Source of the DNA: Candidatus Saccharimonadota bacterium
GTDB taxonomy: Archaea; Nanobdellota; Nanobdellia; Pacearchaeales; GW2011-AR1
Length of the DNA: 24,296 nucleotides
Assembly: GCA_049511795.1 (NCBI GenBank)
Contig: JBEKXS010000003.1
Span: forward strand, 1-24,296
Reading direction: 5' to 3'
The notes beneath the pieces were generated by a model, which was not told the origin of the DNA, did no database searches, and saw only the letters and a list, made by a program, of their open reading frames with translations. A program made the translations under genes and the position numbers. Below, in pieces: positions 1 through 24,296 of the stretch (positions within the stretch are counted from its first letter, which is position 1; each line of letters starts with the position of its first letter).

Positions 1-122
1 ACAAGATAGCCGAATATCGTAGAAAGAACAAAGACAAGATAGCCGAACAAAAAGCTGAATATTATAGAAAGAACAAAGACAAGATAGCTGAATATTTAGC
101 TGAATATTATAGAAAGAACAAA
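1..122. repeat. Terminal direct overlap; nt 1-122 are identical to nt 24175-24296 (circular closure or terminal redundancy)
   Basis: Base-by-base comparison of both ends. The overlap lies inside a coding tandem-repeat array, but unique flanks on both sides fit one continuous ORF. Confidence 0.9.
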
Positions 123-188
123 AGGCAGAGAATGTCAGAGAGATATTCAAAATTACTAAAAGGGGGTCTCAATTCCTCCCAAGCTTGA
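3..188 (+). CDS. 3' part of the KIAEY/YRKNKDKI repeat protein (continuation of 23943..24296 across the junction); ends ...RQRMSERYSKLLKGGLNSSQA*
   Basis: Open frame from the window edge to TGA at 186-188. The frame matches 23943+3n once the 24174-nt offset is applied. The last 9 codons are shared with the methyltransferase gene. Confidence 0.7.
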   Translation, partial: KIAEYRRKNKDKIAEQKAEYYRKNKDKIAEYLAEYYRKNKRQRMSERYSKLLKGGLNSSQA

Positions 189-219
189 AAGCATGGGTAT
201 CCTTGAGACGATTATATGA
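158..219 (+). repeat. 62-nt gene-boundary element, copy 1 (identical to 3443-3504); long imperfect hairpin
   Basis: Perfect 62/62 identity. Outer stem is GTCTCAA (166-172) with TTGAGAC (203-209). Inner stem is CCCAAGC with GCATGGG (one mismatch). The upstream TGA stop lies in the loop and the downstream ATG (216) is inside the repeat. Confidence 0.9.
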
Positions 220-407
220 CACAAAAACAAATAACAAAACAAGAAGAGTTTAATGAAGCAACAAAACCAATTAGAAAATATGTAACAACTATTCCCATTC
301 TTTTGATAGGATTTACTGTTCTATTTGGTTTTCCATTTGGAATTAATTTAATGTCTATTCCTATATTTTCATTGGGAATTATAAATTGGATATATTATTC
401 AAAATGA
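216..407 (+). CDS. Small membrane protein (63 aa) with MTQKQ leader
   Basis: ORF track. Has a hydrophobic C-terminal two thirds. The start ATGACACAAAAACAAA is shared with ORFs at 20350 and 23775. Confidence 0.55.
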   Translation: MTQKQITKQEEFNEATKPIRKYVTTIPILLIGFTVLFGFPFGINLMSIPIFSLGIINWIYYSK

Positions 408-550
408 CAACACAAAAAACAAACACACGAGGGGGAACACAAACCCCCCAGAAAAACACAGAAACAAAGAAGAAGAAATGTAGAACTTGTTTAATTCCTT
501 TAATTCCAAATCATCCTAAATTAAATAAGATTATTCACTTTTTATGCTAA
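404..550 (+). CDS. Hypothetical 48-aa protein (MTTQKTNTRGG...CRTC...)
   Basis: ATGA overlap with the previous stop (405-407). Manually translated. Short, and contains a G5/C6 hairpin. Confidence 0.3.
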   Translation: MTTQKTNTRGGTQTPQKNTETKKKKCRTCLIPLIPNHPKLNKIIHFLC

Positions 551-551
551 A

Positions 552-599
552 ATGACGACTGAAACAGAAATCTTCGGCGATGATGCTGAATTAAAATGA
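552..599 (+). other. 15-codon mini-ORF whose first 19 nt (ATGACGACTGAAACAGAAA) equal the start of the gene at 22242; probable recombination remnant
   Basis: Direct sequence identity between 552-570 and 22242-22260. The ORF stops after MTTETEIFGDDAELK. Confidence 0.35.
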
Positions 600-629
600 A
601 GCCACAAAAACGGAGAAAATTTAGATAAC

Positions 630-1517
630 ATGGAAAAAAAAGAGGTAGATAAAGAAGTAAAAGTCCAAAAGTCAAGCTTTTACTTGTTCTTATTCAATCG
701 CATCAAGGAGGGAAAAACACCTTCTTCTATTTCTAAGGAGTATCAAATCCCTAAGCAAAAGCTCCAATATTATCTAAATCAGCTGAAGAAAGGAGGTTTC
801 ATAGAAAAAGTCGGTTACAAATCATGGAAAGTAAAAGTAAAAGAGTTCTCGTTAGGAACGAGACCGACAACCAACCTTCATGCCTTACAAATCAATATTC
901 CTATTCTTTCAGGGGAAATCAAGGGGTCGGACTGGGAAGTAAAAGAAGAATTAAGAAACTGGACTCCAAAATACAAAACTTTGGACATCTTAGGAGGTCT
1001 TACCATTAAAAACAATAATAATAAATCTATCAGCATCTTTGCTCATTCAAGGGATTTGAAGGAGTTGAAGGAGATTGATGCCCTTTCTTATGATATAGTA
1101 AATTTCGCATTAGAATGGTTTAAGCGAGACTTTAATGTAACTCTTGACTTGTTCAATGCAGAAGTCAAATCTCTTCATATCGCCACTCAAGATAAAGTAA
1201 GCGAAGATATGCAGAAGCAAGGAGATAGGTTTGAATTGGACTTGCAGAAGAAGGCAGAAAAGGTTTTTCCTAAAGATAAGATAGACGGAAAAGCATGGAT
1301 TGATGGTTCTCCTTTCACTTTTACAGCAGAAACAAATGATAAGGAATGGAAAAGAGCTTACTTGTCTATGCCTTTTATGATGGAAGAAATAGCAAAAGCA
1401 ACCCATTATATCGCATTAAACTATGCTTCCCATGTCAAACTGGTAGAAAAAGCAAGTAAAGTAATGGAGAAGCTGGATAAAAGATTATCTCAAACTAAAT
1501 TAACGGAGTTCCTATGA
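630..1517 (+). CDS. 295-aa protein with N-terminal winged-helix-like DNA-binding region; candidate regulator or replication-initiation protein
   Basis: The N-terminus, ...TPSSISKEYQIPKQKLQYYLNQLKKGGFIEKVGY, looks like a wHTH. It is first in an ATGA-coupled operon. No HUH or polymerase motifs were seen. Confidence 0.6.
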   Translation: MEKKEVDKEVKVQKSSFYLFLFNRIKEGKTPSSISKEYQIPKQKLQYYLNQLKKGGFIEKVGYKSWKVKVKEFSLGTRPTTNLHALQINIPILSGEIKGSDWEVKEELRNWTPKYKTLDILGGLTIKNNNNKSISIFAHSRDLKELKEIDALSYDIVNFALEWFKRDFNVTLDLFNAEVKSLHIATQDKVSEDMQKQGDRFELDLQKKAEKVFPKDKIDGKAWIDGSPFTFTAETNDKEWKRAYLSMPFMMEEIAKATHYIALNYASHVKLVEKASKVMEKLDKRLSQTKLTEFL

Positions 1518-1953: not shown

Positions 1954-2057
1954 AAGAAAAAATACAGAAAATCTTGTTCAAGATAGGAGAAGCAATCCTT
2001 ACAGGATTAGGAGTTACAATAGGCGCTTACTTGGCAGGAGTAGTGATAAGAAGATGA
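1950..2057 (+). CDS. 35-aa single-pass membrane peptide (MKEKIQKILFKIGEAILTGLGVTIGAYLAGVVIRR)
   Basis: Manually found. The ATG overlaps the previous TGA (1951-1953), and its TGA (2055-2057) overlaps the recombinase ATG (2054). Confidence 0.4.
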   Translation: MKEKIQKILFKIGEAILTGLGVTIGAYLAGVVIRR

Positions 2058-2596
2058 AAGTTTGTTTATATGCAAGAGTTTCAAAAGAAGAAGAAGGAAT
2101 GCAAGACCCAAACAATCAGCTTATTCCTTTAAGAAAATTCTGTGAATCAATGCAATGGGAAATAAAAAAAGAATTTATTGACAGGGCTTCTGGAGGTTCT
2201 GCAAACAGACCAGCATTTCAATTAATGTTAAGTGAAGTAAAGCAAAGGCATTTTGATTTGATTCTTATTTGGGCATTAGACAGATTTTCAAGAGAAGGAA
2301 TTGTTAGCACATTAAAATATTGCCAACTTCTTAATGATTATAAAACTTCCTTAAAGAGTCTGCAGGAATCATGGTTAGATACAAGAGATGAAGGCATGGG
2401 GCAATTAATGTTGGCAATGATGGCTTGGTTTGCCCAACAAGAAAGAAAAAGAATAAGTGATAGAACAAAAGCAGGATTAAAACAAAAGAAAGAAGAAGGG
2501 AAGATTTTGGGAAGACCAAAGGGATGGAGAAAAAGTAAAATAAAAGGGGTTCAAAATCCTTCTTATAAAAACACTCAAAAAGAGGTAGAGGTTTAG
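2054..2596 (+). CDS. Small serine recombinase (resolvase/invertase catalytic domain), 180 aa
   Basis: MKVCLYARVSKEEEG (catalytic Ser context), DRASG, LIWALDRFSREG, and the E-helix QQERKRISDRTKAGL...GRPKG. I prefer the ATG at 2054 over the track start at 1907. The C-terminal tail is short with no obvious HTH. Confidence 0.8.
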   Translation: MKVCLYARVSKEEEGMQDPNNQLIPLRKFCESMQWEIKKEFIDRASGGSANRPAFQLMLSEVKQRHFDLILIWALDRFSREGIVSTLKYCQLLNDYKTSLKSLQESWLDTRDEGMGQLMLAMMAWFAQQERKRISDRTKAGLKQKKEEGKILGRPKGWRKSKIKGVQNPSYKNTQKEVEV

Positions 2597-2789: not shown

Positions 2790-2810
2790 GGTATCTTAAA
2801 GAAAATGGAA
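2761..2810 (+). repeat. 50-nt gene-boundary element, copy 1 (identical to 23899-23948) with a dyad-symmetric core
   Basis: Perfect 50/50 identity. Hairpin is ATACCCTA (2774-2781) with TAGGGTAT (2787-2794). An overlapping palindrome TACCCT-AA-AGGGTA spans 2775-2788. The element ends with ATGGAA, the first 2 codons of the downstream gene. Confidence 0.9.
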
Positions 2811-3473
2811 ACAAAAACAATAAAGATTTTGAATTTATATGCTGGAATTGGTGGAAATAGAAAACTATGGACAGGAGATATAGAAGTTACGGCAGTAGAG
2901 AATGTTCCAGAGATAGCTAAGATATACCAAGACTTTTTCCCTAATGATAAGGTAATAGTAACAGATGCACACCAATTTTTATTAGAACATTTTAAAGAAT
3001 TTGATTTTATATGGAGTTCTCCACCTTGTCCAAGTCATAGTAGGATAAATACTATGTTAGTAAATGGAAGAGGGTTTAAAGCAAAGTTTCCAGATATGAA
3101 ACTTTATGAAGAGATATTGTTTCTACAAGCATACTTTAAAGGGAAATGGATTGTTGAGAATGTTAGAAGTTTTTATACTCCTTTAATTAAACCACAAGAA
3201 AGAGGTAGACATTATTATTGGAGTAATTTTGAGATAGGATATTTAGGAAAAAGTAAGAAAGTTAGGAATGATAAAGGTTCAATTTTGAGTTTAAAAATGA
3301 AAGATAGAGAAATGGTTGTTAGTGATTTTAAAGATTATAAAGGGGATAAAAGGACTTTGATAAATAATTGTGTAGAACCTATTGTAGGATTATTAATATT
3401 TGAAATGGCTTTCAAGAAACCACAAAAAACTTTATTAGAACAAAAAGGGGGTCTCAATTCCTCCCAAGCTTGA
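2805..3473 (+). CDS. Compact DNA (cytosine-5) methyltransferase, 222 aa; no adjacent restriction endonuclease recognised
   Basis: Motif I LNLYAGIGGN; motif IV SSPPCPSHS (Pro-Cys); motif VI IVENV; motif VIII-like QERGRHYYW; motif X-like NNCVEPIVGLLIF. The target-recognition region is very short. Confidence 0.8.
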   Translation: METKTIKILNLYAGIGGNRKLWTGDIEVTAVENVPEIAKIYQDFFPNDKVIVTDAHQFLLEHFKEFDFIWSSPPCPSHSRINTMLVNGRGFKAKFPDMKLYEEILFLQAYFKGKWIVENVRSFYTPLIKPQERGRHYYWSNFEIGYLGKSKKVRNDKGSILSLKMKDREMVVSDFKDYKGDKRTLINNCVEPIVGLLIFEMAFKKPQKTLLEQKGGLNSSQA

Positions 3474-4006: not shown

Positions 4007-4525
4007 ATGGTAAATAATTGTTTATGGTGTGGAGAACCAATTTTAGAAGGAATAAATAGGGAATATCATCCAATTTGTGTTAAAAGGAAATATAATTTTA
4101 ATAATAGAAAAAAAGCATCAGAGTATTTCCAAAAGAACAAGGAGAAGATTTATTCAGTTAAGAGAATTTATAACATTAAAAATAAGGAAAAAATAGATGA
4201 AATAAAAAGAAAGTATAGGATAAAGAATAGGGAAATTCTAAATAAAAAGGCATTAAAACATTCTAAAAAAAATAGAGACAAAATAAATAAATATCATAAA
4301 GAATGGAAGAAAAATAACAAAAAGATAGTTAATGCAGAAAATCAGGCATCTATAAAAATTCAATTATTAGATTCTTGTCAAATTTGTGGAAGTAAAGAGA
4401 ATCTACAAAGACATCACTGGGATTATAACAGACCATTATTAGTTACTACTTTATGTAAAGATTGTCATAGAATTCAACATATAAAGAACTTTGAAAACAG
4501 TTTCTTTGGGAGGGTATCTTGTTAG
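4007..4525 (+). CDS. HNH endonuclease with a Lys-rich KNKEKI-type repeat region
   Basis: N-terminal CLWCGE...C. The central region has repeated (Y)xxKNKEKI / KNREIL / KNRDKI motifs. C-terminal CQICG...LQRHHWDYN...CKDCHRIQH fits an HNH/beta-beta-alpha-Me motif. Confidence 0.8.
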   Translation: MVNNCLWCGEPILEGINREYHPICVKRKYNFNNRKKASEYFQKNKEKIYSVKRIYNIKNKEKIDEIKRKYRIKNREILNKKALKHSKKNRDKINKYHKEWKKNNKKIVNAENQASIKIQLLDSCQICGSKENLQRHHWDYNRPLLVTTLCKDCHRIQHIKNFENSFFGRVSC

Positions 4526-5273: not shown

Positions 5274-6140
5274 TTAGCCGTGTTTTTCCGACACTTCGCC
5301 GTCATTTTCTTCTGAGGTATCGGAGTATTCTTCAAGTATCTTGTAAATTTCAGCACGGCTCAAGCCACAAATCTCTGAAATCTCCTTTGCAGGTATTCTT
5401 TTCTTTTCTTTTAGGTAGACTATCAGCTTATTCCTTTGCTGAACCTTCTTATCCTGGTTCTGTTTGTTCTTTGATTGTTCAATCAGATGCTTTCCTTTCA
5501 TCTTCTCATACAAATCCCAGTCAGCAATCCATTTCTTTGTATATCTTCCCCTGAAGTTAGGTTTCTCTGCATTGTAATCAACAAACTTGTTCCCTTTGAC
5601 ATACAATTTCCTTTTTTCATCCCTTCCGAAAGCTGCAAAGTAACCTCTTTCAAAAGAATCAGAATAAACAACGAACAAATGCGAAGTCCTGAAGATAGCA
5701 ATGCCTTTAGACAAGTCAAAGAAATTAGGAAGGCAAAGAATAATGAATAATCCTTTCTGCCTTATTAGTTGCAGATGGTTTACAATCCTTAAAAATTCAG
5801 CAGAGCTTGAAACTCTTGAATTTAAGCTCTCAAAAGATTCATCAAGCATGAAAGCCATACCTGTTTTGGCATCAGGACTTGCTGTTCTTTCAATCAATCC
5901 ATTTTCTCCTGTTCCTGTAAAGCATATTCTGTCTTTTGCATTGAATGAAGGGTCAAGAAACTTGCATATCTGCTGTGTGAATGTAGATTTCCCTGTTCCT
6001 GGAATCCCTGCGACAATAGCCAAGTAATCCCATCCCCTTTTCAATACAGAATTTTTTACAGCTTCAAGATTTTCCTTTAATGTTTCATCAATATACATTT
6101 CATCATCAGAACCATCATCTCTTTTTGCAGGGACTATCAT
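5274..6140 (-). CDS. P-loop NTPase (AAA/DnaA-like ATPase) with a C-terminal HTH-like tail, 288 aa
   Basis: Walker A is VAGIPGTGKST; Walker B is MAFMLDES. The C-terminal ...IPAKEISEICGLSRAEIYKILEEY looks like an HTH. Size and position are reminiscent of the conserved fusellovirus DnaA-like ATPase (an inference). Confidence 0.75.
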   Translation of the reverse strand: MIVPAKRDDGSDDEMYIDETLKENLEAVKNSVLKRGWDYLAIVAGIPGTGKSTFTQQICKFLDPSFNAKDRICFTGTGENGLIERTASPDAKTGMAFMLDESFESLNSRVSSSAEFLRIVNHLQLIRQKGLFIILCLPNFFDLSKGIAIFRTSHLFVVYSDSFERGYFAAFGRDEKRKLYVKGNKFVDYNAEKPNFRGRYTKKWIADWDLYEKMKGKHLIEQSKNKQNQDKKVQQRNKLIVYLKEKKRIPAKEISEICGLSRAEIYKILEEYSDTSEENDGEVSEKHG

Positions 6141-6544
6141 TATTTGTTCAGGTTCTTCTTATCTTCCTTAGGGGGAATAAGATAACCATATTTTTTTAGA
6201 GTATCCATTAATAGTTCACTGTAAGAATCCAGATTTTTAATAAGTTCACTTCCATAATTCTTTGAGAACTCAACTTTCTTGGAAAGATTGAATCCAGAAT
6301 ATGTAGTAACCTGAAGTCCGAATGTATTGTTCAGCTCTTTTTCTTTTTCAACAAACTTTTCCCTCTCATCCTGCTTCAAATTAGCAACGATAATCATTCT
6401 TATCGCCTTAAGATTCCTAAAGCATGTTTCAAAATTATATCTTATGTAATTATTTGTAGCTGCATTGAGAATAATCGCTATTTGTTCAATAATTGCCTGG
6501 GATAAATTCCAAGCAACCTCTTGACTGTCAGAAGTGTATGCCAT
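6140..6544 (-). CDS. Hypothetical 134-aa protein, co-transcribed with the ATPase
   Basis: ORF track; 1-nt overlap with the ATPase start. Confidence 0.6.
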   Translation of the reverse strand: MAYTSDSQEVAWNLSQAIIEQIAIILNAATNNYIRYNFETCFRNLKAIRMIIVANLKQDEREKFVEKEKELNNTFGLQVTTYSGFNLSKKVEFSKNYGSELIKNLDSYSELLMDTLKKYGYLIPPKEDKKNLNK

Positions 6545-6646
6545 AATTATGAAACTATAAAAAACACAATCTTTATTAAGTTTGTGTTTATATTAAAATT
6601 ATGGAAAATCGCAAGATTCTTCCCTTCATGAAGGAGGGTAGTAAAG
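6545..6646. promoter_or_regulatory. Divergent control region between the ATPase operon and the capsid operon
   Basis: AT-rich. Has the TATA-like TTTATATTAAAA (about 6587-6598) and an 8-bp inverted repeat AAACACAA (6562-6569) with TTGTGTTT (6582-6589). The SD AAGGAGGG lies before ATG 6647. Confidence 0.45.
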
Positions 6647-6868
6647 ATGTTAGGAAATTTAATAACTGGGTTCTTGATTATTCTCGTTGGAGTAAATTTA
6701 GCCCCAACAGTTGCTAACCAGGTAGCTGCACAGACAAGCAATACAAACTTCACAAACGGCTCTTCTGCTGTTCTTAGTTTGGTTACATTGTTCTTTGTCC
6801 TTGCAGTCGCTGTAGCAGCAATGGATATAGCTGTCGTTGGACTCAGACAATCAGGACTTATAATTTAA
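6647..6868 (+). CDS. Major capsid protein candidate 1, fusellovirus VP1/VP3-like two-helix hydrophobic protein (73 aa)
   Basis: MLGNLITGFLIILVGVNLAPTVANQV...NFTNGSSAVLSLVTLFFVLAVAVAAMDIAVVGL. This matches the SSV1 VP1 pattern recalled from memory (..LIGIVLLPVIVSQV .. ATLLNLVPLFYILVLIIVPAVV). Confidence 0.7.
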   Translation: MLGNLITGFLIILVGVNLAPTVANQVAAQTSNTNFTNGSSAVLSLVTLFFVLAVAVAAMDIAVVGLRQSGLII

Positions 6869-6888: not shown

Positions 6889-7152
6889 ATGTTAGGAAAT
6901 TTAATTACAGGATTCTTGATTATCTTGGTTGGAGTGAATATAGCTCCAACAGTCGCATCACAAGTCCAGGTAGCAGTTTATCCATGGTCAAACGGAACAG
7001 GGCCAGGAGCAAACTTGACCCCAAGCGATAACTTCACAAACGGTTCAGGAGCAGTGCTTACACTTGTAACACTATTCTTCGTTTTGGCAGTTGCTGTTGC
7101 TGCGATGGATATTGCAGTAGTAGGCCTTAGACAATCAGGACTCGTCATATAA
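6889..7152 (+). CDS. Major capsid protein candidate 2 (paralog, 87 aa) with a longer inter-helix loop
   Basis: N- and C-terminal helices are nearly identical to 6647..6868. The loop carries a 14-aa insertion. Confidence 0.7.
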   Translation: MLGNLITGFLIILVGVNIAPTVASQVQVAVYPWSNGTGPGANLTPSDNFTNGSGAVLTLVTLFFVLAVAVAAMDIAVVGLRQSGLVI

Positions 7153-7167: not shown

Positions 7168-8433
7168 ATGAATCATAAAATTCACAATGGGAACGATTTG
7201 TTTAAAATGATTTTTTGTTCCCTTCTCTTTCTTAGTCTCATTAGTTTTGCTTCTGCTTCTTTCGGCTACGGAAATATAAATACTTCCACAAAATATGGAT
7301 ATGGAAATATTTTCACAACATCTCCCCAAGTAAATAATTATAACAATACATATACAAATGTAACAAATGGAACAGATAGCTTTGCAGGAAATTTCTCCAA
7401 CTTCTCCTCTGTTTATGCCATCGGAACTAATGGAACATTTTATCTCGCTTCAAATCCTTCTTCATTCATAACTGCTTCTTCTCTTTCTCCTTATCTTCTT
7501 ATAACAAATTGGAACTCCACAAATTCATCTTATAACACTTTTTTAACAAATAATACTTTCTTGCAGATTTCAAATTGGAATTCAACAAATTCAAGTTATA
7601 ATACAGCTTTTTTTTTAGCAACCAATAATACTTTTATGAAATTCTCGGATTGGAATAGCACTAATTCAAGCTATCTTACATCAGAAACTTACTGGAATGG
7701 AAATTGGTCTGCATTCAAAACAATAAATCAATCTGTAACCAATAATACATTCTTACAAATAAGCAATTTCAATGTTACAAATTCCTCTTACCTAACTTCC
7801 TATACAGAAACAGACCCAAAATGGACTGCTAACTATTCAGGATTCCTTACAACTCAAAATTATGCTCTTAATTGGAATAACAACTGGACATGGTTTAAAA
7901 CAATTAACACAACTATCTCCAATGGAACATTCGCACAATTAGTTTCAACATCAAATCCTACTACGGCTAATTTCACAGGCAATCTTTCTGTATTCCAGAA
8001 CTTCACAGTTGATTCAGGAACATTCTTCGTAGATGCACTTCATAATTATATTGGTGTCAATCTTTCAACTCCTCAAAATGCACTGAATGTTTTTGGAGAT
8101 GCAAACATAACAGGAACAATATACACAAATTTCAATCAGAATTTAACAATACCTTATTTGTTGGCAACAAACAATACTTTCACTCAGCTTACAATCCTTA
8201 ACAACGGAACATATACAACATGGGCAAATATTTTCAATGGAACAATAGCAACCAATGGAACACAAAATAACTTTTCAGTTGCAGGGATAAACACAAACTC
8301 AATAAGGATAAATGGAACAAATGGAAACCAGAGTGCAAAATACAATCTTCATGTCAATGGAAGTGCAGGAAAGATATGCTGGATAAATTATACAGGAGGA
8401 TTGTTCAACTGGTCTGACTGCCCACAAGGTTAA
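7168..8433 (+). CDS. Secreted virion-surface protein candidate, 421 aa, hyper-rich in N-glycosylation sequons with internal repeats
   Basis: Signal-like N-terminus MIFCSLLFLSLISFASA. I count about 40 N-x-S/T sequons by hand. NNTF(L/M)(Q/K)(I/F)S(N/D)(W/F)N(S/V)TNSSY repeats 3 times, preceded by one shorter NWNSTNSSY copy. Confidence 0.7.
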   Translation: MNHKIHNGNDLFKMIFCSLLFLSLISFASASFGYGNINTSTKYGYGNIFTTSPQVNNYNNTYTNVTNGTDSFAGNFSNFSSVYAIGTNGTFYLASNPSSFITASSLSPYLLITNWNSTNSSYNTFLTNNTFLQISNWNSTNSSYNTAFFLATNNTFMKFSDWNSTNSSYLTSETYWNGNWSAFKTINQSVTNNTFLQISNFNVTNSSYLTSYTETDPKWTANYSGFLTTQNYALNWNNNWTWFKTINTTISNGTFAQLVSTSNPTTANFTGNLSVFQNFTVDSGTFFVDALHNYIGVNLSTPQNALNVFGDANITGTIYTNFNQNLTIPYLLATNNTFTQLTILNNGTYTTWANIFNGTIATNGTQNNFSVAGINTNSIRINGTNGNQSAKYNLHVNGSAGKICWINYTGGLFNWSDCPQG

Positions 8434-8475: not shown

Positions 8476-9084
8476 ATGAAAAAGATATATTTGTTTTTGA
8501 TGGCTTTTCTTCTGATAGGAGTAGTCAGTGCTTCAACAAATGACCTCGGCTTCTTTGCCCCTGGCTCATGTGTTCCCTTGATTCAGACCTGCTCCAACAA
8601 CTGCACATTCAACAACATCAGCTCAATCTATGTTTCAAATGGAGGAGGAACTCCTACAGTAACTTCCTATTCTTCCCCTCTTGTAATGACAACGACAAAT
8701 AATTTCTCCTACAATTACACTTACTGCAATACAACCTCGCTGGGAAATTATTATGTCAATGGATATGGAAATGACGGAGGAACACAAGGAAATTGGACAT
8801 ACCAGTTTGAAATAGGATTTCCAATGTGGCTTGTTATTGTCTTCATGATTTTCTCCTATGGTCTTGCCATAATGGGCTTCTTTATGTATAAGAACGAATG
8901 GATTTCTCTTGCAGGGGGAATGATGATGCTTCTCCTTGGAATTTACATAACTTCATACGGAATTTCAATCTACAACAATACCCTGACTTTGGCGATTGGG
9001 TATTTCACTATTGCACTTGGAGGAGTTGCAGCATTAGTTCCAATAGGAGAAAGATTGGAAGTAGATTTCAATCGGTTCGGATAA
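8476..9084 (+). CDS. Signal peptide protein with a Cys/sequon-rich ectodomain and C-terminal multi-TM anchor (202 aa)
   Basis: MKKIYLFLMAFLLIGVVSAS; several N-x-S/T sequons; three hydrophobic helices at the C-terminus. Confidence 0.65.
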   Translation: MKKIYLFLMAFLLIGVVSASTNDLGFFAPGSCVPLIQTCSNNCTFNNISSIYVSNGGGTPTVTSYSSPLVMTTTNNFSYNYTYCNTTSLGNYYVNGYGNDGGTQGNWTYQFEIGFPMWLVIVFMIFSYGLAIMGFFMYKNEWISLAGGMMMLLLGIYITSYGISIYNNTLTLAIGYFTIALGGVAALVPIGERLEVDFNRFG

Positions 9085-9096: not shown

Positions 9097-9252
9097 ATGG
9101 CAGAAGACAAAAAAGAAGTTGAGATAATCCAAGTTCCTACACAGACAGCTTCGGCATTCAAGCTCCCAGACGGAAGAGTGCTTAACTTTGACGAATATCT
9201 CACTTGGATTGGAAACATTCTCATAAAACTTGAAAAAGTTTGGAGCAAATAA
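9097..9252 (+). CDS. Hypothetical 51-aa protein
   Basis: Manually found. Strong SD AAAGGAGG lies 6 nt upstream, and a TAATG overlap joins it to the next gene. Confidence 0.5.
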   Translation: MAEDKKEVEIIQVPTQTASAFKLPDGRVLNFDEYLTWIGNILIKLEKVWSK

Positions 9253-9569: not shown

Positions 9570-9737
9570 ATGAGCTTCAACACGGACTTGAACTCAGTAT
9601 TGAGTTTTGTTCTTCCGATAGTTGCTCTTTTTCTTTTCATGGTTGCAGCATACGGAGTTGTAAAGCAGATTTCTTTTGGAGAAGCATACAAGGAGATAAT
9701 GGAAAAAATAAGGGAGGGATTATCTAATGGCAGATGA
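9570..9737 (+). CDS. 55-aa single-pass membrane protein
   Basis: Manual translation gives MSFNTDLNSVLSFVLPIVALFLFMVAAYGVVKQ.... SD GAAGGAGG lies upstream. Confidence 0.5.
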   Translation: MSFNTDLNSVLSFVLPIVALFLFMVAAYGVVKQISFGEAYKEIMEKIREGLSNGR

Positions 9738-10167: not shown

Positions 10168-10189
10168 TAGTTGAAAGGAGGAGATATTG

Positions 10190-14125: not shown

Positions 14126-16446
14126 AGAAAATAATGTTTGCTTTAGTGTTTGTAATCATTCTACTTAGCATGGTTTCTGCATATACTATGGAATCAAGTT
14201 TGACAAACTGGACTAACTTTACTACTCAATCATCAACTTCACAAAGTTTTTCAGGAGTTCAATTCACAGTTATAGGTTCAGGCATTTCTTTTAATACAGT
14301 AAATGTTTCCTCAATTAATAATGCTACTTCTGCTTATTTGGTTAATGCAAGTTCAAGTGTTGTTTTGAATAGTGCTTATAACAGAACAGGCAATCTTTTT
14401 GTTTTCCCTAAAAATATAAATTTAAACACTTCTGCTTCATACTGGATCCAGTTTGATGCCAATGGTTCAAACTTTAATTATGCAACGGAACCAGTTGCAG
14501 GAAGTTTTTATCCAGTTCTTAGTAATGGAATAAATTATACAGGAAGAAACACAGATAACAACCCAACAATTCTTAATGGACTTTTTAGCATAGGGAATCT
14601 TACCAATCCTATTTTAGCTGGAGCAATTAGTGTAGCTCTTAATTCTCCTGAAGACAATACACAAACAAATCTTAACTTAACATCTTTCAATGCAACAGAA
14701 ACACCAAGCACATTTAGTCTTGTCAATGCAACCCTTTACACTTGGTTCAATAATGGAACTTTGTTTAATACTTCTACACAAACAATAACAGGAAGTGTGG
14801 CAAATGCGACAAATTGGAGTTTAAACCTGCCAATATATAATAATTATCTTTGGAATGTATTGGGAGTTCAGGGAAATGCAAACGGAACAAACAGTTCTTA
14901 TGCTCTTAACAATAACACTTTAGTTTTTACTCCTTTGATTACACAGGGAATAACATTCAATCCATTCACTTACGAAACAGCGAGTGAAACATTTTATGCA
15001 AATATATCTTCAATATCTATTCCAACAAATGCCTTTTTAATCTACAATTCAAGCACATATCCAGCAAGTATAATAAACATAGCAGGAAATTATTATAATC
15101 TTTCCTCAACAATAGACATTCAACCAGGAGTTACAAATAATACTTTCTATTTCAATACAAGCATAAGAGGATTTACAACAACAACAAATTCATCATCTCA
15201 GGGAGTCTATAATGCTTCTTTATTAATGACAAGCAGTGCAGCATGTAATTCAGGATGGCTTCCTTATCTTAATCTGACATTCCAGGATGAAATCAATTCA
15301 ACCATGCTGAATGGAACAATGGGAACTGCAAATGTTACTTATTGGCTTGGAACAGGAACACAGACTAAAAATCTATTAACTTCAAACTCGTCAGGAAACC
15401 AATTCTATCAGCTTTGCTTTGCTCCACAAAATAGGACAATAATCACAAATTATAATTTTGAATATGGAGCAACTGGCTATCCTGGAAGAAATATCGTATC
15501 AACTAATGTTCCCTTGACAAGCTCAATAACAAATAATGTTCTTTATCTTCTTCAGCAAAGCCAAGGGCAGATAGTTACATTCCAAATGGTCAATTCTGCA
15601 ACCCAACCTATTTCAGGAGTTTATGGAACAGCATCAAGGGTAATAAATGGAGTTTCAACAGTTATAGGTTCAGGCATTTCAGGAAATGATGGTGGAATTG
15701 CTTTCTTTTTGAATCCCTTGTCTCAATATTCTTTCTCTTTCTCTTTAGCAGGATATACTACATTTACGGAAACAATATTCCCAACACAGTCAGGATATAC
15801 AGTAACATTAAGCTCTACAGCAGGTGGAGGAGCAAATGATTATACAAGGGGAATAACACAGACAATCCAACCTACAATAGGGGAATTGACAAATGGAACT
15901 TATTATCTTTTCAACTATTCTGTAGGAAGCACTTATTGGACTCTGCAAAATTTCAGTTTCAGTCTATATAGAAATAATGGAACTTTGATAGGAACACAGT
16001 CTTCTACTACTCCTGGAACTCTCACTTTGAATGCTTCCACATCTAATTATACAAGTCTGACAATGTATTATTATTATGGAATCAATGGAACAATAACTAA
16101 TTCTTCTGTTACTTGGATTATTTCCAATCCTGGAAGCTATGGAATCTTGACATTATTTACTGATTTCAAGAATTATTTGATTGGAGGATTGTTTGGAGCA
16201 AATGCCTTCGCAGTTGCTTTAATTATTTACTTGGTAATCTTCATTTCAACAGGTTTAATCGCCTGGAAGGTAGGATACACAGCTCCAGGAACAGTTATAG
16301 CAGTCTTTACAGGGTTAGTCATCATATTTGATGTGGCCTTAGGATTTGATAGTGTAATGAATCCAGCAAATGCAGTTCCTTACTTCCCAAGCATATTCAT
16401 GTTAATCTTAGCTATAGCAGGGATACTAAGAGATAATCAAAGATGA
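14122..16446 (+). CDS. Large (774 aa) sequon-rich envelope/adhesion protein candidate with signal peptide and C-terminal multi-TM anchor
   Basis: I prefer ATG 14122 (MKKIMFALVFVIILLSMVSA) over track start 14035, with an ATGA overlap. Has dozens of N-x-S/T sequons and hydrophobic helices in the last ~110 aa. Confidence 0.75.
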   Translation: MKKIMFALVFVIILLSMVSAYTMESSLTNWTNFTTQSSTSQSFSGVQFTVIGSGISFNTVNVSSINNATSAYLVNASSSVVLNSAYNRTGNLFVFPKNINLNTSASYWIQFDANGSNFNYATEPVAGSFYPVLSNGINYTGRNTDNNPTILNGLFSIGNLTNPILAGAISVALNSPEDNTQTNLNLTSFNATETPSTFSLVNATLYTWFNNGTLFNTSTQTITGSVANATNWSLNLPIYNNYLWNVLGVQGNANGTNSSYALNNNTLVFTPLITQGITFNPFTYETASETFYANISSISIPTNAFLIYNSSTYPASIINIAGNYYNLSSTIDIQPGVTNNTFYFNTSIRGFTTTTNSSSQGVYNASLLMTSSAACNSGWLPYLNLTFQDEINSTMLNGTMGTANVTYWLGTGTQTKNLLTSNSSGNQFYQLCFAPQNRTIITNYNFEYGATGYPGRNIVSTNVPLTSSITNNVLYLLQQSQGQIVTFQMVNSATQPISGVYGTASRVINGVSTVIGSGISGNDGGIAFFLNPLSQYSFSFSLAGYTTFTETIFPTQSGYTVTLSSTAGGGANDYTRGITQTIQPTIGELTNGTYYLFNYSVGSTYWTLQNFSFSLYRNNGTLIGTQSSTTPGTLTLNASTSNYTSLTMYYYYGINGTITNSSVTWIISNPGSYGILTLFTDFKNYLIGGLFGANAFAVALIIYLVIFISTGLIAWKVGYTAPGTVIAVFTGLVIIFDVALGFDSVMNPANAVPYFPSIFMLILAIAGILRDNQR

Positions 16447-16874
16447 AGATAGTCTGGAATTACATATTTATTCTGACAGGAACAGCAATCTTGCTTCAGT
16501 TAGCAGGAATACAGATAGGTGGATTGACTCAATTATTCAATCTTATAGGTATAACATTCAATCAGTCAGCAATTAAGTCAATCAGTTCAAATCCAAGTTT
16601 CTGGAATGCAATCTTTGGTTCAGGAATAGGAATATTAATAGGTGTAGGAATAGGAGTCATAATAGGATTCTTCACAAGAGCAACTCCTGAAAACTTTATT
16701 ATACTTCCATTCATAACAGGAACTTTAACAATTTATGTTTCAGCAATATACTCAATAATAACATACAGCACTTCTTTCGGATGGGTAGGAGTTGTAATAG
16801 CTGCGATACTTCTTCCTTATGCTATCAGCTTGATTGCTGCTTTGGTAGATTATTTTCGCGGTGGAGATTTTTGA
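16443..16874 (+). CDS. Polytopic membrane protein (143 aa)
   Basis: ORF track; four hydrophobic segments; ATGA overlap. Confidence 0.65.
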   Translation: MKIVWNYIFILTGTAILLQLAGIQIGGLTQLFNLIGITFNQSAIKSISSNPSFWNAIFGSGIGILIGVGIGVIIGFFTRATPENFIILPFITGTLTIYVSAIYSIITYSTSFGWVGVVIAAILLPYAISLIAALVDYFRGGDF

Positions 16875-16877
16875 AAA

Positions 16878-17591
16878 ATGGAACAAAAAAAGAAAATAAT
16901 ATCTGAAGAAACGAGAAAAAAGATTAGCGAAGCCCTTAAAGGAAAAAAGTATCCAAGAGAATTGTATCCAAATCGTTCTACAACAGGAAAGAAATATAAA
17001 TGGAAAGTAAAAGATTTTATTCCTAAAAATTTAAATGTATTCATAGAAAGTGGAAAGAATACAAGATTCAATAAAAATATTATTCCTTGGAATAAAGGAT
17101 TAACAAAAGAAACAGATGAAAGAGTGAAAAAATATAGTGAAAATTTAAAAGAAATAGCTAAAACAGGAATATTTATTCCAAATTCTCCATTCACTAAAGG
17201 GCATAAGTCTTATACTCCAGAACATCTTTCTGAAGAACAGAAGAGAAAGATAGGAATTAAGAATAAAGAACATAGAAAATATCAGGTATTTCCTATTAAG
17301 GACACTTCAATAGAACTAAAAATACAATCATTCCTTAAGCAGTTAGGCATAGAATACATTGCTCATGGATATATGCACATTGAACATGGTTATCAATGCG
17401 ACATTCTTATCCCTTCAACTAAAACAATAATAGAATGTGATGGAAACTACTGGCACAAATATCCTAATGGAACAGAGATAGACCATATTAGGACAAAAGA
17501 ATTAATAGAAAAAGGTTATAGAGTAATAAGATTATGGGAGCATGAGATTAAGAAAATGGACTTAAATCAATTTCAGGGGAAAATTTTATGA
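16878..17591 (+). CDS. Homing-endonuclease-like protein: NUMOD3-type DNA-binding repeats plus a Vsr/DUF559-like PD-(D/E)xK nuclease domain (237 aa)
   Basis: SEETRKKISEALKGKK, WNKGLTKETDERVKK and SEEQKRKIGIKNKEH are NUMOD3-like. C-terminal YQCDILIPSTKTIIECDGNYWHKYP...DHIRTKELIEKGYRVIRLWEHEI fits a Vsr/DUF559 pattern. Confidence 0.7.
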   Translation: MEQKKKIISEETRKKISEALKGKKYPRELYPNRSTTGKKYKWKVKDFIPKNLNVFIESGKNTRFNKNIIPWNKGLTKETDERVKKYSENLKEIAKTGIFIPNSPFTKGHKSYTPEHLSEEQKRKIGIKNKEHRKYQVFPIKDTSIELKIQSFLKQLGIEYIAHGYMHIEHGYQCDILIPSTKTIIECDGNYWHKYPNGTEIDHIRTKELIEKGYRVIRLWEHEIKKMDLNQFQGKIL

Positions 17592-18825: not shown

Positions 18826-18838
18826 AGGAGGTATAATA

Positions 18839-18886
18839 ATGGCAAAAAAGGGAAAGAGAAGCAAAAAGAAGATAGTAACTTTGTAG
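18839..18886 (+). CDS. 15-aa very basic peptide (MAKKGKRSKKKIVTL), tentative
   Basis: Strong SD AGAGGAGG lies 8 nt upstream. Too short to support otherwise. Confidence 0.2.
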   Translation: MAKKGKRSKKKIVTL

Positions 18887-18939
18887 TGGCTACATCCATA
18901 ATATTTAAATAGTTGTAGTGCCTAATTAAATTGGTCTTC

Positions 18940-18959
18940 AGCTGGGTTAAATCCCAGCT
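18940..18959 (+). terminator. 7-bp stem / 6-nt loop hairpin (AGCTGGG TTAAAT CCCAGCT) followed by a T-rich tract, at the end of the long + strand operon
   Basis: Perfect inverted repeat read directly. It lies in the largest non-coding stretch (18887-19063). Confidence 0.35.
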
Positions 18960-19063
18960 CTCATACTCATTTTCTTAGTTACCACTTGATAGTTAATAGT
19001 GTTCACTAAGCTAACCTTCATGCACACAGAAAAGCTTAAATAGTTACTTACTTACTATATTTC

Positions 19064-21581: not shown

Positions 21582-21584
21582 CAA

Positions 21585-21656: not shown

Positions 21657-21858
21657 AAAAGAACTTCAAGATTATAAATGGAGTTCTGATTTAGATATTA
21701 AAGAAGAGAAGAAAGAAACTAACTCTGACTGCTCTGACTGCTTTAACTGCTCTAACTGCAGAAACATAAAAACATATTCGAAGTTTATGATATGCAATGT
21801 TCAGCTTACAGAAAAAGAATACAGAAAGAAGATGAAGGAGTTGAAGAATGAAAACTAA
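21622..21858 (+). CDS. Cys-rich 78-aa protein (SDCSDCFNCSNC), MKTKKEILKMT leader
   Basis: ORF track. Confidence 0.55.
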   Translation: MKTKKEILKMTEKELQDYKWSSDLDIKEEKKETNSDCSDCFNCSNCRNIKTYSKFMICNVQLTEKEYRKKMKELKNEN

Positions 21859-22252
21859 AATAACTGAAACAGAAACAGAATACATAGTTAACGGCGACTT
21901 GATACTTACAGAAGATTTCAAGATTTCAAAGCATCTCATAGTTCATGGAGATGTTGAAGGAAAAGACGGCGAGAGATTTAACATAAATGCACGGAACATA
22001 GATGCAGGGAACATAAATGCATGGAACATAGATGCAAGGAACATAGATGCAAGGAACATAAATGCATGGAACATAGATGCAAGGAACATAAATGCATTGG
22101 ACATAAATGCATGGAACATAGATGCATGGAACATAGATGCAAGGAACATAATCTGCGAAACTCGTGTTAAGAAAGATAAGAAATGCAAAACAATAGCGAG
22201 AATTTACATTAAAAATAGAAGCAAAATAAAGAGGAAAGAACATGACGACTGA
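21848..22252 (+). CDS. Pentapeptide-like repeat (beta-solenoid) protein, paralog 1 (134 aa)
   Basis: 11 consecutive 5-aa units (N/D)I(N/D)A(R/W/G/L). Fits a pentapeptide-repeat pattern with D/N at the i-1 position. Confidence 0.7.
   Translation: MKTKITETETEYIVNGDLILTEDFKISKHLIVHGDVEGKDGERFNINARNIDAGNINAWNIDARNIDARNINAWNIDARNINALDINAWNIDAWNIDARNIICETRVKKDKKCKTIARIYIKNRSKIKRKEHDD
21980..22144 (+). repeat. In-frame 15-bp tandem repeat, 11 copies (AACATAGATGCAAGG type)
   Basis: Read directly; the period of 15 matches the 5-aa protein repeat. Confidence 0.9.
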
Positions 22253-22652
22253 AACAGAAACAGAATACATAGTTAACGGCGACTTGATACTTGAAGAAGA
22301 TTTCAAGATTTCGAAAAATCTCATAGTTCACGGAAATATTAAAGGGAAAGACGGCGAGAGATTTAACATAGATGCATTAGACATAGATGCATGGAACATA
22401 GATGCAAGGAACATAGATGCAAGGAACATAAATGCAAGGAACATAAATGCAGGGGACATAAATGCATGGGACATAAATGCAGGGGACATAGATGCAGGGG
22501 ACATAAATGCAGGGAACATAAATGCATGGAACATAAATGCATTAGACATAATCTGCGAAACTCGTATTAAGAAGTTAAAGGAATGCAAAACAAAGGCGAG
22601 AATTTACATTAAAAATAAAAACAAAATAGAGAGGAAAGAATATGACGACTAA
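22242..22652 (+). CDS. Pentapeptide-like repeat (beta-solenoid) protein, paralog 2 (136 aa)
   Basis: 12 consecutive 5-aa units. N- and C-terminal flanks are highly similar to 21848..22252. Confidence 0.7.
   Translation: MTTETETEYIVNGDLILEEDFKISKNLIVHGNIKGKDGERFNIDALDIDAWNIDARNIDARNINARNINAGDINAWDINAGDIDAGDINAGNINAWNINALDIICETRIKKLKECKTKARIYIKNKNKIERKEYDD
22365..22544 (+). repeat. In-frame 15-bp tandem repeat, 12 copies
   Basis: Read directly. Confidence 0.9.
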
Positions 22653-23274
22653 AACAGAAATCTGCTCGTGTGGGCATGAAAGAAAAGAACATAAAAATGA
22701 TTATTATATGATGGGTTCTCAAAAGATAGTTGAAGAAGATGTATGTTGGCATAAAGAAGGTAATTATTATAATTGCTCCTGTAAAAAGTTCACACCTCAA
22801 ACTCCCGAAGACAAAAAGCCAAAAGTATTTATTGAAAGAGCAGAGCCATTAACAATAGAAGGAATAAGAGCAATTTGTATGAATGATGAAGATTATGCTA
22901 AATATAGAAAGGACAAAACTTCGGGGGATTTTTGTTTGAGTGATAAGATTTTGAGTAGAGTAAATCAAGTTAATGAACATTTTAAAGAATTAGATAAAAG
23001 GAAATTACCTTATGATATTAGAGAAAGAGCATTAATGACTTCTCTACCTTTGGTTATTCAAAATGATGTAAAAGAATTCGTGCGGAGATTGAAGTCTAAA
23101 TTTAAAGATGGATGTGGAATGGGTTTTACTTGGAATGACCAAGATGCCACTTGTGGAGATGATTTTGAATATGAAGGTAAGATTAAAGTTATCTTATGTT
23201 CTACTTGTCTTGAAAAGATAAAAGAAATAGACAAACTGTGTGGTTCAAAATTATCAGGAGAAAAAGATGCCTAA
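22642..23274 (+). CDS. Cys/His-rich 210-aa protein (putative zinc-binding N- and C-termini)
   Basis: ORF track. N-terminal TEICSCGHERKEH...CWH...CSC; C-terminal CGMG...CGDD...CSTC. Confidence 0.6.
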   Translation: MTTKTEICSCGHERKEHKNDYYMMGSQKIVEEDVCWHKEGNYYNCSCKKFTPQTPEDKKPKVFIERAEPLTIEGIRAICMNDEDYAKYRKDKTSGDFCLSDKILSRVNQVNEHFKELDKRKLPYDIRERALMTSLPLVIQNDVKEFVRRLKSKFKDGCGMGFTWNDQDATCGDDFEYEGKIKVILCSTCLEKIKEIDKLCGSKLSGEKDA

Positions 23275-23623
23275 GAAAGGATATATCAAAACAGAAGAGC
23301 ATAGAAAGAAACTAAGTAATTCTATTTTAGAATCTGATAAGGGTTTTCAGAAAGGACATCAGACTTGGAACAAACAAGGGAAAGGCAGACTTAAAAGAAA
23401 GTTCAAGAGAGTAGAAGGCAAGATGATACTTAACTCTCATCACGTTTGGCTTATGCACAATAATCTAAAGACTATACCTAAAGGGTATATAATTCATCAC
23501 AAAGACCTAAACTCTATGAATGATGACATCTCTAATCTTATCTTAATGACTGATATTGACCATAAGAAATTGCATGGAGAGTTAGATAGAAAACGATTTA
23601 TGGCGGAGGAAAAATTAATATGA
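23267..23623 (+). CDS. HNH homing-endonuclease-like protein (118 aa) with a NUMOD-like N-terminal motif
   Basis: I prefer ATG 23267 over GTG 23240. TEEHRKKLSNS; HHVW...GYIIHHKDLNSMNDDISNLILMTDIDHKKLH fits an HNH_3-type pattern. Confidence 0.75.
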   Translation: MPKKGYIKTEEHRKKLSNSILESDKGFQKGHQTWNKQGKGRLKRKFKRVEGKMILNSHHVWLMHNNLKTIPKGYIIHHKDLNSMNDDISNLILMTDIDHKKLHGELDRKRFMAEEKLI

Positions 23624-23778
23624 TTAGAACTGAAATTTGTGGGTGTAAATATCTTTTGGATATAGATGGAACTAAAACTTTCGTAGCATTTTGTAAAGAA
23701 CATTCTTTTCTTAATTTTGGAAGGCATCCAAATCAAATAAAACCAATTGTAAAATCGGGGGAAAAATTAAGCAAATGA
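23620..23778 (+). CDS. 52-aa Cys-containing protein (MIRTEICGCK...), N-terminus similar to 22642 ORF
   Basis: Manual; ATGA overlaps at both ends. Confidence 0.4.
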   Translation: MIRTEICGCKYLLDIDGTKTFVAFCKEHSFLNFGRHPNQIKPIVKSGEKLSK

Positions 23779-23897
23779 CACAAAAACAAATAAAACAAGA
23801 ACTTAAGAGAAAGGTTGAAGAAAGAGATTGGATAATAATAGCATTAGTAATATTATGGTTTTTAACTTTAGCTTTTTTTAATATGGGTTTATGGTAA
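23775..23897 (+). CDS. 40-aa single-pass membrane protein with MTQKQ leader
   Basis: Manual translation gives MTQKQIKQELKRKVEERDWIIIALVILWFLTLAFFNMGLW*. The leader is identical at nt level to the 216 ORF start. Confidence 0.45.
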   Translation: MTQKQIKQELKRKVEERDWIIIALVILWFLTLAFFNMGLW

Positions 23898-23898
23898 A

Positions 23899-23948
23899 AT
23901 GACATACTCCCATACCCTAAAGGGTAGGGTATCTTAAAGAAAATGGAA
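23899..23948 (+). repeat. 50-nt gene-boundary element, copy 2 (identical to 2761-2810)
   Basis: Perfect identity; hairpin at 23912-23932. Confidence 0.9.
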
Positions 23949-24296
23949 CTAAAGCAATTTATAAAACAAATACCAACACCAGAAGAAACACTTGTTGATT
24001 ATGATAAAAAGATAGCCGAACAAAAAGCTGAATATTATAGAAAGAACAAAGACAAGATAGCCGAATATCGTAGAAAGAACAAAGACAAGATAGCCGAATA
24101 TTTAGCTGAATATTATAGAAAGAACAAAGACAAGATAGCCGAATATTTAGCTGAATATTATAGAAAGAACAAAGACAAGATAGCCGAATATCGTAGAAAG
24201 AACAAAGACAAGATAGCCGAACAAAAAGCTGAATATTATAGAAAGAACAAAGACAAGATAGCTGAATATTTAGCTGAATATTATAGAAAGAACAAA
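23943..24296 (+). CDS. 5' part of the KIAEY/YRKNKDKI repeat protein (no stop in window; continues at nt 3..188 if circular)
   Basis: MELKQFIKQIPTPEETLVDYDK, followed by units KIAEQKAEYYRKNKD, KIAEYRRKNKD and KIAEYLAEYYRKNKD. There are 118 complete codons to the window edge. Confidence 0.7.
   Translation, partial: MELKQFIKQIPTPEETLVDYDKKIAEQKAEYYRKNKDKIAEYRRKNKDKIAEYLAEYYRKNKDKIAEYLAEYYRKNKDKIAEYRRKNKDKIAEQKAEYYRKNKDKIAEYLAEYYRKNK
24008..24296 (+). repeat. Coding tandem-repeat array of 33- and 45-bp units (continues into nt 1-125)
   Basis: Unit order read directly: 45a, 33b, 45c, 45c, 33b, 45a, 45c. Confidence 0.85.
24175..24296. repeat. Terminal direct overlap (identical to nt 1-122)
   Basis: See the first feature. 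Confidence 0.9.

Follow-up and report, generated by a model that had tools for sequence, protein, structure and literature searches.

A complete 24-kb genome from peat, very probably that of a spindle-shaped archaeal virus

Contig JBEKXS010000003.1 of the assembly GCA_049511795.1 was analysed over positions 1 to 24,296 (the window, i.e., the whole stretch of 24,296 nt). It carries two tandem genes for small two-helix proteins, an ATPase gene on the opposite strand and a long series of genes for secreted and membrane proteins, and its two ends are identical. The locus raises the question of what kind of replicon this is, to which lineage it belongs and in which host it resides. A preliminary description made from the sequence had proposed a circular, fusellovirus-like spindle-shaped archaeal virus with atypical features. 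The analyses presented here indicate that the window is, very probably, the complete genome of an uncultivated peat double-stranded DNA (dsDNA) virus from the spindle-shaped archaeal virus assemblage, circular or circularly permuted. This assemblage comprises the fuselloviruses, halspiviruses, thaspiviruses, wyrdviruses and nanohaloarchaeal DNSVs, and the genome is a new lineage within it. It represents a known kind of virus and no new kind of biological system, and the sequence was already public as an unannotated viral operational taxonomic unit (vOTU).

Capsid Proteins

The two tandem genes encode the 73-aa major capsid protein 1 (6647..6868, plus strand), an alpha-helical hairpin of the VP1 family, and its 87-aa paralog, major capsid protein 2 (6889..7152, plus strand), which has a longer sequon-bearing loop and is 85% identical to the first protein outside this loop. 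Both paralogs consist of two hydrophobic helices and a variable loop with N-x-S/T sequons. The 73-aa protein matched phrog_11172 (E 7.9e-6) over the region of mature VP1, and SSV1 VP1 matches the same PHROG at 1.3e-40. The Pfam searches of the capsid proteins gave sub-threshold matches only, to both VP1_VP3 and His1_capsid.

The capsid family comprised 209 relatives (cluster representatives) in a hidden Markov model (HMM) search of 1.84 billion representative proteins, and many of its members, 130-145 aa in length, carry the domain C-terminally, as the precursor of SSV1 VP1 does. A narrow profile of 13 sequences gave weak matches (VP3 34%, VP21 10%). The profile widened through the 1.84-billion-protein search contained 121 sequences, and its comparison by hhalign with mature SSV1 VP1 reached 98.0% probability (E 2e-13, 57 columns), with 90.3% for SSV1 VP3 and 90.1% for His1 VP21. 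Reversed VP1 and VP21, VP1 shuffled 30 times and a further six small membrane proteins of the window served as negative controls, and all of them remained at or below 2%, so the homology is specific and not compositional. Judged from these profile comparisons, both small proteins (73 and 87 aa) are homologs of SSV1 VP1/VP3 and His1 VP21, in agreement with the two tandem VP1/VP3-like two-helix capsid proteins proposed earlier. The tblastn search of the capsid protein against 50,697 phage records gave no match. The specific match of the capsid protein to the VP1/VP21 families led to the rejection of a pleolipovirus-like reading.

The ATPase operon and the capsid genes diverge from an intergenic region (6545..6646) that contains an AT-rich TTTATATT box and the GGAGGG Shine-Dalgarno (SD) sequence of the capsid gene. 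The region of the TTTATATT box is the presumed promoter.

Morphogenesis ATPase

The morphogenesis ATPase (288 aa; 5274..6140, minus strand) has a P-loop with the Walker A motif GIPGTGKST, the Walker B motif LDES and a C-terminal helix-turn-helix (HTH). Its AlphaFold2 (AF2) model (pLDDT 92) consists of a P-loop core, a long helix and the C-terminal HTH. No strong Pfam or PHROG family was found for this protein, pairwise BLASTP against SSV1 B251 and His1 ORF16 aligned a P-loop or HTH snippet only, and the IMG/VR scan with the ATPase alone returned nothing. A total of 163 homologs were detected. The 63-sequence ATPase profile aligned with His1 ORF16 over 222 columns running from Walker A through Walker B to the HTH (hhalign, 96.8%, E 2.6e-10), and His1 ORF16 and SSV1 B251 both fall in phrog_5484. 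On this profile alignment the ATPase is homologous to His1 ORF16, and the link to SSV1 B251 runs only via ORF16. Thus, of the DnaA-like P-loop ATPase proposed for the opposite strand, the P-loop ATPase and, through ORF16, its place in the B251 family were retained, and the direct match to B251 did not extend beyond the P-loop.

The Foldseek search of the PDB placed the Zot N-domain 2r2a first (E 5e-5), followed by STIV2 B204 and inovirus Zot proteins. Zot is a homolog of the filamentous-phage protein pI. This top fold match agrees with the published pI-like similarity of the spindle-virus ATPases, which are nearest to filamentous-phage pI but are devoid of its membrane span (bioRxiv 10.1101/2021.07.29.453957).

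Linkage of the two hallmark genes was counted in those related metagenomic loci (n = 25) whose sequence extends 2.5 kb or more beyond the ATPase on its upstream side. One to three capsid-family open reading frames (ORFs) lie beside the ATPase in 14 of them, and the arrangement is divergent in 12 of these 14.

The ATPase is co-transcribed with a gene for a 134-aa protein (6140..6544, minus strand), which overlaps the ATPase start. In the relatives this gene always immediately precedes the ATPase, as seen directly upstream of it in contigs L014, L015, L016 and L018, and its product is probably an obligate partner of the ATPase.

Comparison with Known Spindle-Shaped Viruses

The genome resembles those of the Fuselloviridae in several respects. 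Fusellovirus genomes are circular dsDNA molecules of about 15-24 kb, a size range that includes the present 24,174-bp unit, and at 24,186 bp the fusellovirus ASV1 contradicts the earlier claim that the replicon is atypically large. As in SSV1, there are two paralogous VP1/VP3-type hairpin proteins with a sequon just before helix 2; the soluble ATPase is related through His1 ORF16 and phrog_5484, a possible counterpart of VP4 (C792) exists in a large protein of about 780 aa, and many ORFs are tiny. The differences are that the SSV-type tyrosine integrase is absent and a small serine recombinase is present, that the capsid proteins are devoid of an N-terminal propeptide, and that beyond the VP1-family capsid no fusellovirus-specific PHROG or Pfam family was found in scans of all proteins. 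Moreover, the genome comes from mesophilic peat and has 34% GC, whereas fuselloviruses inhabit the Sulfolobales of hot springs. The virus lies outside Fuselloviridae proper because it has neither an SSV-type integrase nor a further fusellovirus-specific family. The fusellovirus-like character proposed for it therefore holds for the capsid/ATPase module and does not extend to membership in the family.

The likeness to the Halspiviridae (His1) concerns the ATPase architecture, with a P-loop and a C-terminal HTH aligned over 222 columns, the 73-aa capsid protein (hhalign 90%) and the local synteny, in which the ATPase operon lies on one strand and the capsid gene diverges from it on the other. 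Unlike the genome described here, His1 is linear, 14.5 kb long, bounded by inverted terminal repeats and equipped with a protein-primed family B polymerase; it also has only one capsid gene, and its host is a halophile. As the present genome is not linear and has no terminal inverted repeats or protein-primed polymerase, it lies outside the Halspiviridae as well.

Spindle-shaped viruses have reportedly been found among DPANN-associated viruses by Wu, Liu & Ni 2024 (Nat Microbiol 9:3362), whose survey comprises 97 elements. The closest published analogues, compared by description, are DNSV-1/2 and the Asgard wyrdviruses. The nanohaloarchaeal DNSV-1/2 have genomes of 20.8-22.1 kb, DPANN hosts, a tyrosine integrase and two capsid paralogs (10.1101/2025.02.15.638363), and the Asgard wyrdvirus WyrdV1 is a metagenome-derived genome of 15.6 kb (10.1101/2021.07.29.453957). 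The signature module of these viruses consists of a hairpin capsid protein and an AAA+ ATPase, and paralogous capsid pairs occur in both wyrdviruses and DNSVs (10.1101/2025.02.15.638363). The present genome, also known from metagenomes, shares with them the AAA+ ATPase, most similar to filamentous-phage pI/Zot, hairpin capsid proteins that occur singly or as two paralogs, an adhesin gene and a conserved set of genes without known function. It differs from the DNSVs in having a small serine recombinase instead of a tyrosine integrase, and from both groups in its origin from acidic peat as opposed to brines or deep-sea sediment. Kirinvirus and Ditingvirus are family names mentioned in PMC13573593. 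The whole window gave no megablast match among the 50,697 phage records.

Alternative Explanations, Host and Habitat

Next to a spindle-shaped virus, the explanation that survives best is a plasmid or virus satellite, comparable with pSSVx and the SRCE elements, that borrows the capsid and ATPase genes of a helper and forms no virions of its own. Small circular elements carrying only a capsid protein and/or an ATPase do exist (10.1101/2025.02.15.638363), but their 2.7-9 kb is far below the 24 kb found here. No recognisable replication protein was detected in the window by Pfam and PHROG, and the conserved 295-aa protein described below is also encoded on L101, an element without the capsid/ATPase module; both findings would suit a satellite. 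The module nevertheless looks full, with a long membrane/glycoprotein block that includes adhesin-like proteins and follows an order shared with the relatives L001, L018 and L100. We consider a satellite improbable.

Several findings weigh against the assignment to a spindle-shaped archaeal virus. The ATPase profile aligned with SSV1 B251 at the P-loop only (28.9%), the ATPase itself gave no match to phrog_5484 in the PHROG scan, and its Foldseek matches in the viral and PDB libraries were weak (TM 0.3-0.5), of a generic P-loop or Zot-like kind and not decisive for the family. The spindle morphology is presumed from homology, the virus being known here from its genes alone. No provirus was found among more than 100 related contigs, all of which are at most about 56 kb long and carry neither cellular genes nor a credible tRNA attachment (att) site. 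Finally, the bin labels of the relatives conflict, some being Bacillota (two contigs of 2-4 kb) and one Ignavibacteria (35 kb). The Bacillota-labelled relatives are L014 and L015 (DATKUW01; 2-4 kb), retrieved from the scan of GTDB genomes. The Ignavibacteria-labelled metagenome-assembled genome (MAG) contains L100 (ENA ERZ508539 NODE_270, 35,029 nt), which has 25% GC and is syntenic with the window, and which is therefore regarded as a viral contig mis-binned in a bacterial MAG.

These labels are the starting point of the second alternative, a bacterial phage or plasmid whose likeness to archaeal viruses is convergent or compositional. Relatives of the ATPase occur in a Bacillota-labelled MAG, and the label Ignavibacteria is attached to a relative of the 295-aa protein, but the "bacterial" contigs are either fragments of 2-4 kb or the syntenic 35-kb relative with 25% GC, that is, binning artefacts. 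SD motifs are frequent in the window, and phages commonly carry serine recombinase, HNH and Vsr-like genes; yet Pfam and PHROG revealed no bacterial phage hallmark, and the secreted proteins are extremely enriched in N-x-S/T. The capsid homology is specific and passes the composition controls. The sigma-70 promoter-like and intrinsic-terminator-like sites of the window were not enriched over shuffled sequences, which also speaks against a bacterial replicon. The VP1-type capsid is known only from archaeal viruses (10.1101/2021.07.29.453957), and for this reason an archaeal host is the best inference. A bacterial phage or plasmid appears very improbable, and the host of the spindle-shaped virus is probably an archaeon.

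Proteins identical to those of the window are present in an NCBI MAG labelled Candidatus Pacearchaeota, and a DPANN (Pacearchaeota) host is plausible but unproven. The SPRUCE peat bog in Minnesota yielded 5,006 vOTUs, two of which are the JAFMOA01 contigs of the element (PMC8626947). In the same study, the CRISPR links all connected other vOTUs with bacterial MAGs, and none concerned the JAFMOA01 contigs (PMC8626947). An AT-rich, probably mesophilic archaeal host had been suggested from the sequence; the mesophilic source agrees with the SPRUCE peat vOTUs, and the DPANN archaeal host is indicated by one MAG label only.

The 209 capsid representatives and 163 ATPase homologs show a wide occurrence of the VP1-type capsid/ATPase module, which extends over cold acidic peat and many anoxic sediments. 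In the present genome it is joined to a recombinase of non-canonical type and to a replication module as yet unexplained. Spindle-shaped viruses form a lineage specific to archaea that presumably reaches back to the last archaeal common ancestor, and every new host range or habitat tests this antiquity. The genome also provides a complete, well-validated reference for the annotation of fragmentary 'viral dark matter' contigs, several of which appear to be mis-binned into bacterial MAGs.

Closure and Topology of the Genome

Nucleotides 1-122 of the window equal nucleotides 24175-24296 exactly, which gives a unit of 24,174 bp with a GC content of 34.1%, and no longer or alternative terminal overlap was found in the window sequence. 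This terminal overlap (1..122, without strand) is the assembly signature of a circular 24,174-bp molecule, and the contigs L003 and L006 run through the join in their interior with 100% identity. The overlap sits within a tandem array with a period of 45 nt, the next-best internal copy of the 122-mer being 96% identical, so that the overlap alone could not exclude a repeat-induced false closure.

The decisive evidence came from public contigs. The identical ATPase protein is present on 21 of them, including two from GenBank (JAFMOA010001199.1, 24,338 nt; JAFMOA010001204.1, 24,301 nt), one from JGI (25,826 nt) and one from ENA (24,069 nt), and at least 10 independently assembled contigs represent the same element. 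Alignment by blastn to a circular model showed that JAFMOA010001199.1 and JAFMOA010001204.1 traverse the position 24174->1 internally at 100% identity, and that contigs start at window positions 21541, 8919 and 12590, i.e., as circular permutations. The 24,301-nt contig corresponds to the 24,174-bp unit plus 127 nt. Since independent, permuted contigs span the join, the molecule is circular or circularly permuted and complete, and the overlap is not a repeat artefact. The closure at about 24.17 kb and the view that the join is no repeat-induced mis-assembly, both put forward in the preliminary description, are settled by these contigs.

A third alternative, a tandem-repeat assembly artefact concealing a linear molecule or part of a larger genome or provirus, would fit the near-identical copies of the 45-nt array (next best 96%) and the repeat number at the junction, which varies among assemblies, but it is barely credible given that the unique sequence flanking the join is contiguous at 100% identity in other, permuted contigs, that one contig equals the unit plus 127 nt, that 0 of more than 100 related contigs run into cellular DNA, and that neither terminal inverted repeats in the window nor a protein-primed polymerase among its Pfam-scanned proteins was found.

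Among the relatives, L017 (56,297 nt) is about twice as long as L016 (28,972 nt), a ratio that points to a circular genome assembled in dimer-like form.

Gene Content and Non-Structural Genes

Coding sequences occupy about 95% of the genome, and 52 of the approximately 54 genes share one strand. No tRNA genes were found in the window. Pfam and PHROG scans of every protein revealed no polymerase, Rep, primase, terminase or portal families and no HK97 or jelly-roll capsid families, which bears out the absence of polymerase, terminase, portal and icosahedral capsid genes noted earlier. The motif GGAGG lies upstream of 16 of 54 genes (background 1.6%) and any 4-mer SD core upstream of 33 of 54 (background 13%). 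Strong GGAGG sites are thus enriched, as had been stated, but with 16 of 54 genes they do not precede most of them.

A conserved 295-aa protein is encoded at 630..1517 (plus strand) and has 198 homologs with 49-77% identity. It gave weak matches to winged HTH (wHTH) families in Pfam, and its AF2 model (pLDDT 80.7) shows a winged HTH at the N-terminus, a beta/alpha domain of two repeats and, at the C-terminus, a long helix. The Foldseek search matched archaeal and eukaryotic TATA-binding proteins (TBPs) over about 200 columns (E 5e-4 to 3e-3, TMt 0.49-0.56). At the sequence level there was no Pfam TBP match, and no internal repeat supporting a TBP-like duplication was detected in the protein, so the kinship with TBP stays a lead. 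According to the model, the protein would be DNA-binding and is a candidate origin-binding or transcription factor. The gene is also found on L101, the unrelated-looking element mentioned above, which comes from 0.1-µm-filtered groundwater, and this sharing suggests that it is part of a mobile expression or replication module. A more far-reaching reading is tentative and, in our view, rather unlikely: the protein would be a viral winged helix/TBP-fold fusion that redirects archaeal host transcription or marks the origin and is common to many mobile elements from environments rich in ultra-small archaea, and together with the serine recombinase it would define an undescribed family of mesophilic spindle viruses with a new expression/replication module.

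The serine recombinase (180 aa; 2054..2596, plus strand) matched the Pfam family Resolvase over residues 4-150 (E 7.9e-35) as well as phrog_95 and phrog_125, and carries the YARVS nucleophile motif in its N-terminal catalytic domain. No HTH_7 match was found for a C-terminal HTH, only about 25 residues following the GRPKG linker. A homolog is present in L001. With its 180 aa the protein belongs to the resolvase/invertase size class, and multimer resolution or site recombination is a more plausible role than that of a large-serine integrase. No Phage_integrase match was obtained for any window protein in Pfam. The presence of a serine recombinase in place of an SSV-type tyrosine integrase was thus upheld; as the protein has the catalytic domain only, an integrase role is unproven.

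An invertible segment as the target of the recombinase was considered and rejected, the window being without convincing inverted repeats. Tyrosine integrases are carried by many relatives (L016/L017, L018), and in L018 two such ORFs (Phage_integrase; 217 and 234 aa) lie side by side.

A short C5 cytosine DNA methyltransferase of 222 aa (2805..3473, plus strand) matched Pfam DNA_methylase (E 2.1e-7) and phrog_363 (E 1.4e-12). Three endonuclease genes were confirmed by Pfam and PHROG, in line with the several homing-endonuclease-like genes reported before. The first, at 4007..4525 (plus strand), encodes an HNH-like endonuclease with N-terminal KNKEKI repeats (phrog_2340 endonuclease, E 1.4e-8). 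The second, at 16878..17591 (plus strand), encodes a homing-endonuclease-like protein with NUMOD3 and Vsr/DUF559-type domains (DUF559 E 4.9e-8, NUMOD3; phrog_559, phrog_3339) and interrupts the structural module as an insertion. The third, at 23267..23623 (plus strand), encodes an HNH endonuclease of 118 aa (Pfam HNH_3, E 3.4e-6; phrog_7545, E 3.4e-9). An explanation of the endonuclease genes by noncoding RNA (ncRNA) or introns was rejected, there being no Rfam match and no tRNA.

Virion Module

The genes downstream of the capsid pair form a module whose order and sequence are kept in L001 (IMG/VR, 27.4 kb), L018 and L100. It begins with a secreted protein of 421 aa (7168..8433, plus strand) that contains 40 N-x-S/T sequons (9.5 per 100 aa), gave no Pfam or PHROG match and is a putative glycosylated virion surface protein. 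It is followed by a 202-aa protein with a signal peptide and C-terminal membrane spans (8476..9084, plus strand; 50% identity in L001) and by a conserved block of five genes for proteins of 105, 55, 146, 174 and 94 aa (9252..10995, plus strand), in the same order in L001 and L018. A Ser/Ala/Gln-rich low-complexity protein of 742 aa with a basic C-terminus (11392..13620, plus strand) was also without a Pfam or PHROG match.

Two small membrane proteins of 86 and 83 aa (13617..14125, plus strand) precede the gene of a 774-aa protein (14122..16446, plus strand), and the order of this trio is kept in L001 and L100. The 774-aa protein has 41 N-x-S/T sequons, a signal peptide and a C-terminal multi-span anchor, and is 35-36% identical over about 500 aa to its counterparts in L001 and L100. 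By analogy with the position of SSV1 VP4 and of the wyrdvirus adhesin, it is a putative receptor-binding adhesin or terminal-fibre protein. Beside the adhesin gene lies the gene of a polytopic membrane protein of 143 aa (16443..16874, plus strand; 36% identity in L100). The sequons of the 421- and 774-aa proteins occur at about twice the rate predicted by composition, and the hyper-sequon-rich proteins singled out in the first reading of the sequence are these two.

By analogy with SSV1, His1 and the wyrdviruses, the hairpin capsid proteins would become inserted in the membrane of the host and form a polymer around the DNA, and the ATPase may drive a non-lytic assembly of the extrusion or budding type. 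The presumably N-glycosylated 774- and 421-aa proteins could form a receptor-binding end structure and mediate adsorption, a role suggested by analogy and not by homology. Since no polymerase or Rep was found, replication would be performed by host enzymes, possibly directed by the 295-aa protein with its wHTH/TBP fold, and the small serine recombinase may resolve genome multimers or mediate site-specific recombination. In this scheme the host would be a mesophilic, AT-rich archaeon that may belong to the DPANN (Pacearchaeota).

Junction ORF, Repeats and Noncoding Regions

Once the sequence is circularised, the ORF that begins at 23943 (23943..24296, plus strand) stays in frame across the join and stops at 186-188, exactly as first described. 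It encodes 139 aa with 15-aa KDKIAEY..YYRKNK repeats and matched phrog_17714, a family of unknown function (E 2e-13); no nuclease domain was found in it. Its length is 139, 124 or 72 aa depending on the assembly, and only the repeat number differs.

The C-terminus of the junction ORF, GGLNSSQA, is the same as in the methyltransferase, and the two genes are bracketed by the same two elements (flank repeats D9 and D7), which substantiates the shared 5' and 3' flanks claimed for the junction ORF and another gene. The upstream flank is a 58-nt element (2758-2815 versus 23896-23953, 95% identical) and the downstream flank a 76-nt element (155-230 versus 3440-3515, 92% identical). The former holds a ATACCCTA..TAGGGTAT hairpin, and the latter encodes the common C-terminus. 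This bracketed layout resembles a cassette and could be the footprint of recombination or homing.

The largest noncoding stretch (238 nt; 18826..19063) contains two TTAAATAGTT boxes and a CAGCTGGG/CCCAGCTG hairpin, and the second largest (408-629) a GGGGG...CCCCCC hairpin. Both are candidate origin, promoter or regulatory regions, functions suggested by their features. No Rfam match was found in the window, these two stretches included.

A segmental duplication links 20106-20425 with 21343-21656 at a spacing of 1.23 kb. A 73-nt part of it is 100% identical, and it gives two genes one leader and one N-terminus, MKTKKEILKMT. Tandem paralogs of 134 and 136 aa (21848..22652, plus strand) contain 5-aa NIDAR/NINAW repeats (15 nt; repeat family D1). 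The 25,826-nt strain variant L002 has extra, longer copies of 154 and 167 aa at about 17600-19200, and this locus is hypervariable among genomes that are otherwise 99-100% identical.

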